Of a stretch of 64,000 nt of DNA, positions 4,299-16,253 are shown in pieces. Origin of the DNA: a virus. How positions within the stretch are numbered: position 1 is the stretch's first letter; each line of letters starts with the position of its first letter. The stretch is taken from the IMG/VR virus record IMGVR_UViG_3300045988_090210; one strand, given 5' to 3'. Made by a program: the position numbers and the translations under genes. The notes below the pieces were generated by a model. It did not search any database, was not told the DNA's origin, and saw only the letters and a list, made by a program, of their open reading frames with translations.

Positions 4299-4730
4299 AT
4301 GGCACAGTTTAACAACACAAAAATTATTAGATACTTGAAAATGGCGAAAGAGGCCAGTAAGCAGTCTAACTTTAAGCAACACCATCTTGGAGCTGTAGCA
4401 ATTTATAAAGGCAGTTTGCTGGCCACAGGCCATAACAGTACAAAGACCAATCCCCGACAGAAAGAACTTAACCGTGAACGCGGTTGGGATGTTGAAGCCA
4501 GCGATGCTCATAATACTGTCCATGCTGAGTGTGCTTGTTTGAGCAAGATTAGATACCTTGATATTGACTTTAGCAAGGTTAAGCTCTATGTTTATCGTGA
4601 ACATAAAAATGGAGTCAAAGCCCTTGCGAGGCCATGTCCAGCTTGTCAAAAGATGATTAAGGATATGGGGATTAAAGAGGTCTATTTCACGACAGAGAAT
4701 GGCTTTGGGTATGAATGGATGGAGGATTGA
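4299..4730 (+). CDS. dCMP / cytidine deaminase-fold zinc enzyme
   Basis: HAE (VHAECACL) and PCPAC zinc-ligand motifs at the spacing typical of dCMP deaminases. Confidence 0.75.
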   Translation: MAQFNNTKIIRYLKMAKEASKQSNFKQHHLGAVAIYKGSLLATGHNSTKTNPRQKELNRERGWDVEASDAHNTVHAECACLSKIRYLDIDFSKVKLYVYREHKNGVKALARPCPACQKMIKDMGIKEVYFTTENGFGYEWMED

Positions 4731-5835: not shown

Positions 5836-7068
5836 ATGGATAAAATCTTTGAAATTATCAACAATGAACAAAAACGCCAAGACAACACAGTAGAACTTAT
5901 TGCTTCAGAGAACTTTGTCAGTGATAGAGTCAAACAGGCCGTTGGGTCTTGTATGATGCTCAAGTATACTGAGGGGTATCCTAGCAAAGAGAGTATCGCA
6001 AAGTTCCAAGAAAAATATCCTGATTATGTACATACTGGTAACATGGGTAGATATTATGGCGGGTGCGAGAATTTTGATGAGCTTGAATTGTATTGCCGCT
6101 ATATGTGGCAAAAAGTATTTAAGACTGATTACCATGTAAACGTTCAGCCCCACTCAGGCTCTTCTGCTAATATGGAAGTTTATGCCAGTGTACTTGAGCC
6201 GGGAGATACTGTGCTGAGTATGAGCCTTAATAATGGAGCGCATCTCACTCACGGCTCTCCTGTAAACTTTAGTGGCAAGTTGTACAACATGGTATTTTAT
6301 GGCGTAAACCAATATGGTCGAATTGACATTGATGACATCTATAACAAAGTCATTGCATACAAGCCTAAGATGGTGGTTGTTGGAGCGTCTGCGTATGCTA
6401 GAGCAATCCCTTATCATACCATCCGAACAATCATTGATTTGGCTGCAATGAAGGCTAATATTGACACACCCTATATGTTTGTGGATATGGCGCATATCGC
6501 TGGACTTATTGTCAGTGGCGACCATGAAAGCCCATTTGGTGTGGCTGACTTTATTACTACTACAACACAAAAGACGTTAAGAGGTAATAGAGGAGGCATT
6601 ATCTTTTGTAAGCCTGAATATGCAAAGAAAGTTGATAGCGCTGTGTTCCCCGGTAATCAAGGCGGTAGCCTAATGAATGAGATTGCTGGTAAAGCTGTAA
6701 CGGCTGATGAGGCACTAACGTCTGAATTTAAGGAATATGGACACCAGATTATCAAGAACGCCAAAGCTATGGCAGATGAGTTTATCAAGTTGGGATTTAA
6801 ACTGGTTACTGACGGCACAGATAACCACTTAATTTTGCTTGATTTGACTGACTTTGGTGTGAACGGCAAGCAGGTACAGGACGAACTTGATAAGTATGGT
6901 ATTACACTAAATAAGAATATGATTCCTAATGATCCAAGAAGTCCAGCCCAGACAAGCGGTGTACGGATTGGTGTTCCGGCCATGACAACAAAGGGCTGGA
7001 AGGAAGAGGATTTTATCAAGTGCGCTGATAAGATTGCTGAAATTATTAAAAACATGAAAACAGAGTAA
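5836..7068 (+). CDS. glyA: Serine hydroxymethyltransferase
   Basis: VELIASENFVS, YYGGCE, NVQPHSGSSAN, SPVNFSGKLY and TTTTQKTLRGNRGG (PLP-lysine region) are collinear with bacterial GlyA. Confidence 0.9.
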   Translation: MDKIFEIINNEQKRQDNTVELIASENFVSDRVKQAVGSCMMLKYTEGYPSKESIAKFQEKYPDYVHTGNMGRYYGGCENFDELELYCRYMWQKVFKTDYHVNVQPHSGSSANMEVYASVLEPGDTVLSMSLNNGAHLTHGSPVNFSGKLYNMVFYGVNQYGRIDIDDIYNKVIAYKPKMVVVGASAYARAIPYHTIRTIIDLAAMKANIDTPYMFVDMAHIAGLIVSGDHESPFGVADFITTTTQKTLRGNRGGIIFCKPEYAKKVDSAVFPGNQGGSLMNEIAGKAVTADEALTSEFKEYGHQIIKNAKAMADEFIKLGFKLVTDGTDNHLILLDLTDFGVNGKQVQDELDKYGITLNKNMIPNDPRSPAQTSGVRIGVPAMTTKGWKEEDFIKCADKIAEIIKNMKTE

Positions 7069-14206: not shown

Positions 14207-14664
14207 TGTTCTGTAATTGTTACCATGTAATCGAGGAAAAGCCGGGTAAATTTAGTGGTGAGTGCTGGGGTACAAGAGAACGTGAAAGATGTTATTGCAA
14301 TGGGGATACGTGTTATTGTACGTATTATCCTGAAAAGCGGAATACAACAATCGATGTCGAAAACAAGGACGAAAATATGGGCAAGGAAAAGACTATCCTG
14401 AATACTGCTGAAATGTGGCTCAAGGCGCAAGAGGATGGTAAAACTTATGTGTCCGATTGTGCTATATATTCTAAGACTGCTGGTTATATGAATAGAAGAT
14501 TTCATGATTCTGCTTGGGGACCAGCTACTTGGGCACATAGCGAGGACAATGAAGATAAAAAGCGTGAACTAGACAATCTAATGTCGACCCAATGGCATGA
14601 AGAAGTGCCTACTATGACCCGTGCAGAAGCAGAATCAAAATTAGGTGTAAAAATTGTTGATTAA
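14206..14664 (+). CDS. Cys-rich hypothetical protein
   Basis: ATG at 14206 follows GAAAGGAG and overlaps the upstream stop. Confidence 0.5.
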   Translation: MFCNCYHVIEEKPGKFSGECWGTRERERCYCNGDTCYCTYYPEKRNTTIDVENKDENMGKEKTILNTAEMWLKAQEDGKTYVSDCAIYSKTAGYMNRRFHDSAWGPATWAHSEDNEDKKRELDNLMSTQWHEEVPTMTRAEAESKLGVKIVD

Positions 14665-14679
14665 ATTTCAATTTATCTA

Positions 14680-14708
14680 TTGACAATACCATTTTTCTAT
14701 GATAGAAT
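14680..14708 (+). promoter_or_regulatory. Sigma-A type promoter upstream of the tRNA
   Basis: TTGACA at 14680-14685, 17 nt, TGaTAGAAT ending at 14708. Confidence 0.55.
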
Positions 14709-14753
14709 CTAATCAAGATAAAGGTTTGCGGTTAGCCTGTAAAACCGCTTTAT

Positions 14754-14829
14754 GGGAGGTTCATATAGTGGTCAAGTATGTACGACTTATAATCGTGTCA
14801 CAGGTGTTCGAATCACCTACCTCCTACCA
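14754..14829 (+). tRNA. tRNA-Ile with anticodon UAU and an encoded CCA end
   Basis: I folded this cloverleaf by hand. The acceptor is GGGAGGT/ACCTCCT (first pair G-U) and the D arm is ATAT/GTAT. The anticodon stem is TACGA/TCGTG with loop CTTATAA. The T arm is AGGTG-TTCGAAT-CACCT, followed by discriminator A and CCA. Confidence 0.8.
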
Positions 14830-15355
14830 GACCGCCTATTGGGGTTCTCGTGCGAAATATAAATAACGAAGTGGGATAATAAAGGTTGTAGAAGATGGGG
14901 GATGCGAAGCATCTTTCCAAATTCAAACCTCCCAACGGCTAAAATCAACTGACCCATAGTTGATGAAAGAGAACAAGGTCACATATCCCCATGAAAGTAG
15001 GATAGTGGGGCACACCAAGCAATCAAACATAGCCGAAGATGCGGAATGTGTGGTAGGGTGAAAGAGCTTTTGGCCAAAGCGTGTAGGTCATGTTTGATTG
15101 TGGAGAACGATAGCGCATGAGCTTGAGTTTTCCTTTGTATCCTTTCTGTTTTAGAAGGTGGCTCCTTCTATAATCCTCATACTCGCTACCTGTTGCCGTA
15201 GGTTGGATGAATAAAGGCGAGACTATATTGAACGAGGCTTCTCAAGGGTTGAGCCTATCAGCCCTATCCCAAAGCCATGTTCCCCATGGCATGGTTTACC
15301 TCCTATACTTCATAATATACTTCCATCACATGGCTCGAATTTGTTTAGAAAAAAC
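14830..15355 (+). ncRNA. Candidate large structured ncRNA (ROOL/GOLLD-like context)
   Basis: About 525 nt immediately 3' of the tRNA are ORF-free and relatively GC-rich. An 11-bp long-range helix pairs 15020-15030 with 15090-15100. Hairpins lie at 14901-14913 (GATGC-GAA-GCATC), 14944-14964, 15152-15170 and 15233-15256. The track ORF start at 15207 is an artefactual 5' extension of the recombinase gene. Confidence 0.4.
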
Positions 15356-15357
15356 TC

Positions 15358-15386
15358 TTGACAAGTTCGAGCCGTTGTGGTATCAT
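15358..15386 (+). promoter_or_regulatory. Sigma-A type promoter for the recombinase gene
   Basis: TTGACA at 15358-15363, 17 nt, TGgTATCAT ending at 15386. The GGCTCGAA/TTCGAGCC inverted repeat straddles the -35. Confidence 0.55.
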
Positions 15387-15413
15387 AAAGACAAATCAAA
15401 GGAGGCCAATAAA

Positions 15414-16253
15414 ATGATTGAGAGTTTTGTTAATTATATGAAAGCTGAGAAGATGTCTGAGAATACCATGCGTGGCTACACTAATCACATTAACCAAATG
15501 CTCAAGACCATTAACAAGCCTGAACAGGACATTACCTACCTTGACCTGATTGACTGGAAGGCTGGTATTGCTAATCAGGCCAGTGCAACGGTGGCCAATA
15601 AGGTTGCTGCTGTTCGGTCTTACTTTAAGTTTTTGACTGATGTTGGTGTGGTTGAGACTGACCCAAGCAAGAACCTCAAGCGCCCCAGCAACATCAAGAG
15701 TAAGGAAAAGCCCCGCATGACCGAGGAAGATGCAAGACAGCTTATCTCCTATGCTCGTACCCCTCGTGACAAGGCCATGTTCAGTTTCTTGCTTTCTACT
15801 GGTGTTCGGTTCTGTGAGATGGCCAATATCACCATTGATCAATATAAGAAGGCTATGGAGAACAACCGAGAGATTGAGTTGCCCGTAACCAAGGGTGATA
15901 AGGGCGGCAAGGTTTATATTAATCAGTCTACTGAACAGGCGATTGAGCGGTATTTGCGTCTGCGTGATGATGATTGCCCCTATCTGTTCGCTTCTTTCCA
16001 GAATCATCAACTAAGCGACAATAGCGTGTCTCAGACTATTAAATCTGCTGCTCGTAGGGCTGGATTGAGCTATTGGAATGAGCTTAGTTGCCATGGGTTG
16101 AGAGCCGGTTGTGCAACGATTATGAGTGATAAAGGTGTTCCAGTGGCCACTATTAGTAAGGTCTTACGTCATAGCTCGTTGGCTGTGACTACAAGATATA
16201 TCAAAGCAAATCAGGATAATGTCAATAATGCTACAGCATTGATGGAATTTTAA
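15414..16253 (+). CDS. Tyrosine recombinase (XerC/D-like, comparable to SPbeta YopP)
   Basis: ATG at 15414 follows AAAGGAGG. The N-terminal SAM-like domain reads FVNYMKAEKMSENTMRGY. The catalytic signature is TGVRFCEM, HGLRAGCAT and LRHSSLAVTTRY. Confidence 0.85.
   Translation: MIESFVNYMKAEKMSENTMRGYTNHINQMLKTINKPEQDITYLDLIDWKAGIANQASATVANKVAAVRSYFKFLTDVGVVETDPSKNLKRPSNIKSKEKPRMTEEDARQLISYARTPRDKAMFSFLLSTGVRFCEMANITIDQYKKAMENNREIELPVTKGDKGGKVYINQSTEQAIERYLRLRDDDCPYLFASFQNHQLSDNSVSQTIKSAARRAGLSYWNELSCHGLRAGCATIMSDKGVPVATISKVLRHSSLAVTTRYIKANQDNVNNATALMEF

Follow-up and report, generated by a model that had tools for sequence, protein, structure and literature searches.

A conserved structured RNA family set against tRNA ends in the tRNA arrays of human-gut tailed phages

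Which kind of element fills the roughly 525 nucleotides (nt) that separate a tRNA-Ile(UAU) gene from a recombinase gene in an uncultivated phage? The locus belongs to the IMG/VR record IMGVR_UViG_3300045988_090210, analyzed here as a stretch of 64,000 nt (the window); all positions refer to this whole stretch, features lie on the + strand unless stated otherwise, and L-numbers denote the loci compared with it. A description made from the letters of the DNA (the sequence-only reading) had proposed a single giant noncoding RNA of the ROOL or GOLLD kind, fused behind the tRNA. Comparison with relatives showed that positions 14830-15100 (271 nt) belong to a conserved family of structured RNAs in the tRNA arrays of human-gut tailed phages, with a conserved fold whose boundaries are fixed against tRNA ends. 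The remaining 15101-15357 consist of independent modules.

The family was retrieved by sequence patterns drawn from its own conserved parts, and 87 loci were then scanned with a covariance model of its 5' domain (R1) at a threshold of E ≤ 1e-8. R1 found 70 copies, 62 of them distinct, including the divergent ones of L007 and L008, and gave a single match in the window at 14829-15015 (108.6 bits, E 4.5e-21). Full elements measured 220-387 nt across the family, and a divergent homologue of 14830-15100 was located between two tRNA-Thr genes in L004. Motif scans recovered copies in several phage lineages, from IMG/VR and from 50 metagenome loci, for which every named source was human gut and many contigs were 60-170 kb long. 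The pattern CTATTGGGGNNNTCGTG gave at least 119 matches in IMG/VR, most of them protein-coding or chance matches (for example, the PPYWG methylase motif) and a handful real. When the window locus and the L149 copy were compared by blastn with 50,697 sequenced phages, the element itself was unmatched and only a flanking tRNA-Glu gave matches.

Covariation across these copies supported the fold. In the R1 alignment 99.0% of the cells were paired and 18 of the 29 pairs showed double changes; the covariation score was 0.310 against 0.130 in shuffled controls (0 of 500 reached it), and did not exceed 0.058 when the partners were slid by 1-3 columns. The conserved unit is one three-way junction plus hairpins, and all its named helices (P0, P1, H2, H3 and H4) were recovered by the minimum-free-energy fold of 14829-15103 alone. 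P0, which starts right after the tRNA CCA, pairs GACC (14830-14833) with GGUC (14977-14980); 99.1% of its cells were paired, AU, GC, GU and UA pairs alternated, and three of its four pairs carried double changes. It had been left out of the R1 structure, yet RNAalifold predicted it independently, together with P1 and H2. P1 pairs GUUCUC (14844-14849) with GAGAAC (14969-14974), with 99.7% of cells paired, and takes the forms GAAGUC/GACUUC in L004 and AUUCUC/GAGAAU in L007 and L008.

H2 (14944-14964), formed by AUCAACU (14944-14950), the loop GACCCAU and AGUUGAU (14958-14964), was paired in 99.7% of cells with double changes in five of its six modelled pairs, so that the ATCAACT/AGTTGAT pairing noticed in the sequence-only reading is real and covaries strongly. 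H3 (14987-15010) joins CCCCA (14987-14991) to UGGGG (15006-15010) beneath the conserved loop UGAAAGUAGGAUAG; the same loop sat on at least seven different stem sequences, and all four modelled pairs showed double changes. This pairing takes the place of the ATGGGG/CCCCAT helix that had been suggested, and the arms of another suggestion, GGATAG/CTATCC, sit in unrelated modules. H1 (14850-14938), placed by the minimum-free-energy fold, is a variable arm that differed among lineages in both sequence and length (~30 to ~105 nt), and the hairpin GATGC-GAA-GCATC (14901-14913) is its tip.

The 3' hairpin H4 spans 15020-15100, and its basal stem (15020-15034/15086-15100) extends the 11-bp helix 15020-15030/15090-15100 that had been spotted before; that helix is real and forms the base of a longer conserved hairpin. 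Pair counting based on MAFFT gave a weak result (75.7% vs 71.6%) owing to register shifts, and an anchored comparison of the arms was used instead. Among 26 variants with 20 distinct 5' arms, 25 paired at 10-15 of the 15 positions and the remaining one, L166, at 8; arms formed 12.3 pairs on average with their own partner vs 9.4 with the partner of another member, and compensatory changes were found in L192 and L174. The interior of H4 holds a conserved internal loop, CCGARG/GUAGG, a purine-rich part and an apical hairpin, GCUUU/AAAGC. We make no claim from three resemblances that found no model match: GGUAGGGUGAAAG in H4 as RNase P-like or a T-loop, CUAAG/UAUUGG as a GAAA receptor, and CCGARG/GUAGG as a K-turn or loop E.

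Between P0 and P1 lies an invariant strand of 10 nt, GCCUAUUGGG (14834-14843), which is complementary to the loops of H2 and H3. Its CCUAU (14835-14839) could pair with GUAGG (14997-15001) in the H3 loop, and its UGGG (14840-14843) with CCCA (14953-14956) in the H2 loop. Both candidates were pairable in 99.5-100% of cells, with one mismatch, in L148, and one compensatory change each (L004 for CCUAU/GUAGG and L177 for UGGG/CCCA). Because most of these columns are invariant, formation of the two pseudoknots is proposed tentatively.

The strand of the RNA was also apparent from the alignments, in which G-U wobble changes are compatible with the + strand only. The folding z-score of 14830-15357 was strand-specific, at -2.28 on the + strand vs -0.11 on the - strand, and the two parts taken alone gave -1.66 (14829-15103) and -1.63 (15104-15357). 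Fold energy is only modestly more favourable than chance; it is the comparative evidence that carries the case, and this supports a structured RNA of ~271 nt, not 525.

Some copies lack parts of the fold. The 108-kb contig of L121 holds a second copy, at 6215-6464, between tRNA-Trp and an odd tRNA-like gene, which keeps the 5' strand, H1, an insert module and H4 and lacks H2, the 3' strand of P1 and H3; either the domains can occur apart from each other or this copy is undergoing decay. A variant on the - strand of L157 (4269-4679) has a 5' domain at 4547-4679 without the H4 hairpin, and ~180 nt downstream of it we found a full-length match to the 'drum' model that stays below threshold (35 bits vs a gathering score of 43, E 0.005).

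CCA immediately preceded P0 in 36 of 40 distinct junctions, and in 41 of the 62 distinct copies an ARAGORN-called tRNA (Glu, Met, Ile, Thr or Pro) ended within 5 nt of the start of the R1 match, which lies one base before P0. Upstream of the copies in L001, L002 and L068 the sequence resembles a truncated or odd tRNA. On the 3' side, 36 distinct contexts were compared: the next tRNA began 0-5 nt beyond the final pair of H4 in 9 of them and within 130 nt in 16. A median of four tRNAs lay within 3 kb of the element, which was always embedded between tRNAs or tRNA remnants; the majority of tRNAs in the same arrays are without one. The neighbourhood comparison found no protein common to all RNA-carrying lineages, and the recombinase adjoins the RNA only in the lineage of the window.

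Such a setting, in a phage and near tRNA genes, is that of ROOL and GOLLD. Membership in either family was examined with Rfam 15 (4227 models), which includes ROOL, GOLLD and OLE profiles (PMC12286853). The window was scanned at gathering score, the interval 14600-15500 at E ≤ 10 with permissive filters, and seven relatives (43 kb, with the largest versions of the RNA included) at E ≤ 1. At gathering score, tRNA was the sole match in the window; at E ≤ 10, 14600-15500 yielded, besides tRNA, chance microRNA and small nucleolar RNA hairpins far under their gathering scores; and in the seven relatives at E ≤ 1, ROOL and GOLLD, ribozymes, introns and RNase P all went unmatched, the sub-threshold 'drum' match of L157 being the one relevant result other than tRNA. 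Neither ROOL nor GOLLD, nor the universally conserved 3' region of the latter, was matched in any of these scans, and among the 4227 models we likewise found no match to group I or II introns, RNase P RNA, small ribozymes or riboswitches. The present RNA is like ROOL and GOLLD in being phage-encoded, free of ORFs, elaborate and conserved in secondary structure, and placed within or beside tRNA islands; some GOLLD RNAs have tRNAs inside them. It differs from them in size (220-387 nt vs ~580 to >800 nt), in its set of helices, in the exact abutment of its 5' helix on the tRNA CCA, and in having been found only on uncultivated human-gut phage contigs.

A single RNA of ~525 nt covering 14830-15357 would nevertheless fit several features of the locus. 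As had been noted earlier, the stretch from the tRNA to the recombinase gene has no terminator-like site on its + strand, the + strand of both halves together folds somewhat better than shuffled sequence (z -2.28), and giant RNAs of this kind adjoin phage tRNAs. Against it stand the missing ROOL and GOLLD matches in all three scans, the lack of support for long-range pairs between the halves, the fact that the element of relatives ends at H4 against the next tRNA, and the composition of the 3' half, whose modules occur independently in relatives, so that it does not form one RNA with the 5' half. We regard the giant RNA as very improbable. The fallback offered with it, a new large phage RNA if neither family matched, is supported for the 5' half, which is conserved and covarying over ~271 nt, and unsupported for the ~525 nt as a whole.

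The 3' half could be taken apart with the help of eight IMG/VR contigs (80-92 kb, one of them a 14-kb fragment) that carry the same recombinase at 74-98% identity and have a variable tRNA array upstream of it. Positions 15101-15168 are a lineage-specific spacer, present only in the lineage of the window and outside the family core. It contains a hairpin of GGAGAAC (15102-15108) and GUUUUCC (15127-15133) with the loop AGCGCAUGAGCU, then a pyrimidine-rich run, and a second, non-conserved hairpin of TAGAAGG (15152-15158) and CCTTCTA (15165-15171), which the earlier reading had listed among its pairings and in whose place L163 and L177 carry unrelated sequence. The next 59 nt (15169-15227) are an orphaned 5' leader of tRNA-Leu(CAA): the same sequence ends 1-4 nt before tRNA-Leu in L002, L004, L007 and L008, the arrangement recurs in L121, and L170 has its tRNA-Leu 128 nt after H4, while the tRNA itself has gone from the window and from the relatives closest to it. 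In this way orphaned leaders left by a variable tRNA array can come to resemble one long noncoding region. Positions 15236-15271 hold an intergenic motif, GGCTTCTCAAGGGTTGAGCCTATCAGCCCTATCCCA (present once in the window, against a chance expectation of 0), that stands alone in unrelated phages and is followed in the window by a hairpin of GCCATG (15275-15280) and CATGGC (15286-15291). The idea that the whole region is decayed spacer of a tRNA array fits 15101-15357 and is refuted for 14830-15100 by the divergent full-length homologues.

Two of these modules showed a wider distribution. The loop AGCGCAUGAGCU is conserved on differing stems, GGAGAAC/GUUUUCC in the window and GCCAU/GUGGC in L121 (~6600-6640), and the hairpin may be a separate small motif of tRNA arrays. 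The intergenic motif is an instance of a near-invariant sequence of ~36 nt, GGCTTCTNAAGGGTTGAGCCTATCAGCCCTATYCCA, whose other copies include those of L011 (at 5383, 6943 and 7644), L010, L012, L017, L018, L021-L025 and L211-L217. It sits between genes, directly behind stop codons, in numerous phage contigs that are unrelated, and occurs also between ORFs, not at tRNA flanks, in contigs of Oscillospiraceae and Ruminococcus metagenome-assembled genomes. A small hairpin of variable sequence always follows it. No Rfam family matched the 15236-15271 motif, which may act as a terminator, mark a processing site or have a regulatory role.

Could the region be no RNA gene at all, being instead a DNA site of the attP type used by the tyrosine recombinase, or a protein gene that was missed? 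A XerC/D-like recombinase is indeed adjacent, and inverted repeats are present at 15236-15271 and 15324-15383. Copies in other lineages, however, have no recombinase nearby, and the helices are maintained by compensatory and G-U changes as expected of RNA. The family pattern had 0 matches in 185,579 species-representative reference genomes, so that no attB-like identity emerged. As for coding, the sequence-only reading had seen no credible ORF, and all ORFs are indeed ≤46 amino acids (aa) long, apart from an extension of 69 aa at the upstream end of the recombinase frame; no ORF is conserved among relatives. The extension matched neither Pfam nor PHROG, and is missing in L002 and L007, where the ORF begins at the ATG; in L001 and L005 a 5-nt indel shifts it out of frame. 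We therefore give an attP-type site or a missed gene hardly any credence. We found no support for an integron-like cassette array or for a guide RNA of the recombinase, with the RNA present without the recombinase in other lineages.

How, then, would such an RNA be made, and what becomes of it? On balance we lean towards a tRNA-linked RNA that is freed by the processing of tRNA ends and then persists as a stable folded RNA. It would be co-transcribed with tRNA-Ile from the promoter at 14680 and released during maturation of the flanking tRNAs, with a cut at CCA|P0 making its 5' end and, where a tRNA follows, the RNase P cut at the 5' end of that tRNA making its 3' end. The 5' cut might be made by an endonuclease, by RNase P recognizing a helix mimic or by the RNA itself. 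The released RNA would then be a parallel to the RNAs of the T4 tRNA cluster, ROOL and GOLLD. In T4, species 1 and 2 of that cluster are small stable RNAs that are co-transcribed with tRNAs and released by tRNA-processing enzymes; at ~120-140 nt they are shorter than the present RNA, and they belong to a Gram-negative host system. We favor a putative role in phage tRNA supply or translation takeover.

Several points weigh against this proposal. Co-transcription, the processing sites and stability are all steps that we infer. As a rule, the RNase Z of Firmicutes is inhibited when CCA is encoded, which leaves no obvious enzyme for a cut at CCA|P0. No tRNA follows in the window, so half of the excision model is inapplicable there: with the downstream tRNA-Leu deleted, no 3' end would be set by a tRNA and read-through toward the recombinase gene is probable. 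Since the family was retrieved by patterns of its own, the 3' strand of P1 and the H3 loop are partly invariant by construction, and because many copies are near relatives, the cell counts exceed the true number of independent events. The deletion variants (L121 6215-6464, L002 and L157) show, moreover, that the element is able to decay or else has separable domains.

The exact start of P0 at the first position after CCA in 36 of 40 junctions would also be expected of a self-cleaving ribozyme that cuts its own 5' end there and in this way finishes the 3' ends of phage tRNAs independently of host nucleases, theta-like in its work and built on an unrelated, larger fold. Gut-phage theta ribozymes place their cleavage site at tRNA 3' ends (PMC10879173), the 5' domain has invariant unpaired nucleotides, and P0 and CCUAU/GUAGG would cross like P1 and P2 of the hepatitis delta virus (HDV) ribozyme if the pseudoknots are real. 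The comparison fails in other respects. Theta ribozymes, which are minimal and HDV-like, have a conserved G1 and a catalytic C (PMC10879173), whereas the base after CCA is G, A or U here (P0 starts with GACC, AGCC, AACC, UGCC or UUAGC) and no candidate catalytic C was found. Helix order and content differ from the nested HDV double pseudoknot (P1/P2/P3/P1.1), with no conserved C at the equivalent (J4/2) position; the crossing of P0 is tentative, each pseudoknot has a single compensatory change, and no Rfam ribozyme matched at E ≤ 10. CCA is encoded by 4.5% of theta-adjacent tRNAs, and ~90% of theta ribozymes are predicted in phages infecting Bacteroidota (PMC10879173), whereas the present RNA follows an encoded CCA, is 4-6 times larger, and occurs in phages whose nearest isolates infect Enterocloster. 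Shared features are the first nucleotide at a phage tRNA 3' end, the gut Caudoviricetes and arrays that may include suppressor tRNAs. In the absence of a conserved G1 and of a match to an HDV-type model, the RNA would at most work like theta ribozymes, and we hold self-cleavage in that manner to be unlikely. It is similarly doubtful that the 5' domain (P0, P1, H2 and H3, with the invariant strand pairing to two loops) forms a new self-cleaving class cutting precisely after the encoded CCA or, alternatively, that the RNA docks onto or encloses the tRNAs beside it, a behaviour proposed for GOLLD.

The embedding of every copy among tRNAs or their remnants, the mosaic copies and deletion variants, and the want of a conserved partner protein would equally suit a structured pre-tRNA spacer that acts only in cis, for example by insulating tRNAs from misfolding or by directing or blocking nucleases, before it is degraded. 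A spacer of this sort would hardly require loops and junction strands that are invariant across lineages with diverged helices, nor optional extra domains of up to 387 nt, which exceed the needs of an insulating hairpin, and most tRNAs of the same arrays do without it. We judge a cis-only function to be a minor possibility next to the stable processed RNA described above.

Structured RNAs beside phage tRNA islands, such as GOLLD, ROOL and the T4 stable RNAs, are a long-standing puzzle, and the processing of tRNA ends by some phage RNAs next to tRNAs has lately come to light with the theta ribozymes. Against this background the kind of element, a structured RNA in a phage tRNA island, is known, while the family, its fold and its exact abutment on CCA appear to be new. 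The family constitutes a third architecture, with the sharp feature that its first helix comes right after CCA and, in some phages, its last helix ends 0-5 nt from the next tRNA. It is undescribed in Rfam 15 and in the literature searched; the models of a 2023 catalogue (10,006 viral candidates, PMC10690425) lay outside this search, so an unnamed prior listing is possible. Its motifs were absent from the first 200 of the 408 supplementary files of Fremin 2021 and from the searched supplements of the theta-ribozyme paper (PMC10879173). Should the self-cleaving alternative be true, the RNA would be a structurally unrelated counterpart of theta ribozymes in Firmicute-infecting gut phages. Being compact (~220-390 nt), well covarying and abundant in gut-phage contigs of 60-170 kb, the family is a practical experimental target.

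The surroundings of the RNA in the window were largely as the sequence-only reading had described them, as the promoter, tRNA, ORF and terminator results show. A sigma-70-type promoter at 14680-14708 (TTGACA-17-TAGAAT with a TG element) was confirmed as a promoter-like site by the scan (11/12) and would serve the tRNA and RNA as one unit; its position is kept in L003, L005 and L006. The 5' leader of tRNA-Ile (14709-14753), in which a hairpin of GCGGTT (14728-14733) and AACCGC (14743-14748) can be read, also stands before the tRNA-Ile of L001 and L008 and recurs in L002, for which tRNA-Ile went undetected. The tRNA-Ile(UAU) itself (14754-14829, encoded CCA at 14827-14829) was confirmed by ARAGORN and by the Rfam tRNA model (53.9 bits). 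ARAGORN found no other tRNA in the window, and Rfam at E ≤ 10 gave no further match of the tRNA clan in 14600-15500. The region had also been called more GC-rich than its surroundings; its GC fraction of 0.435-0.465 does exceed the 0.34-0.42 found upstream, but the recombinase gene is equally GC-rich.

The recombinase gene (15414-16253) encodes a XerC/D-like tyrosine recombinase of 279 aa (Pfam Phage_integrase, 4.5e-28). As had been stated, the ORF covering part of the noncoding region is only its upstream extension: an AGGAGG ribosome-binding site precedes the ATG at 15414, and a promoter of its own, TTGACA-17-TATCAT, was scanned at 15358-15386. An inverted repeat, 15324-15341/15358-15376, lies over this promoter (15324-15386); within 15324-15383 it reads CACAUGGCUCGAAUUUGU ... 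ACAAGUUCGAGCCGUUGUG and surrounds the -35 box. Compensatory changes keep the palindrome, as AAAGCTCG/CGAGCTTT in L183 and GGCACGAA/TTCGTGCC in L177. Rfam returned only a chance match of the microRNA type for it, and it may be an operator or a hairpin in read-through RNA. The replication module of the phage comprises a DnaB-like helicase, a DnaE-type polymerase, RecJ and exonuclease V. The nearest isolates are phages of Enterocloster bolteae, with 49% amino-acid identity in the polymerase; Enterocloster phage PMBT24, which belongs to that group, has no annotated tRNA within the 12.8 kb surrounding its recombinase, though R1 was not run on this phage.

The tRNA arrays of relatives carried further features of their own. 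A conserved micro-ORF with its own ribosome-binding site, encoding M..(E/D)..LYGTNYNVHSTK* and followed by a GC hairpin, lies inside the arrays of L004 (1664-1730), L007 (2353-2424) and also L002, and is missing from the window. Rfam tRNA matches of 117-156 nt were obtained in L004 (767-905), L002 (983-1115), L149 (1899-2018 and 6834-7100) and L068 (3827-3982); these may be phage tRNAs with insertions of ~50-80 nt, possibly introns, and ARAGORN made no call on those of L004 and L002. The RNA-carrying array of L068, with 11 tRNAs, includes at 2828-2902 a tRNA with a CUA anticodon, the amber suppressor type, a hint of stop-codon recoding in some host phages. L002 (2117-2815) and L004 (~2054-2746) share an ORF of 232 aa with several CxxC pairs, inserted between tRNA-Leu and the intergenic motif; it may be a homing-endonuclease-like insertion.

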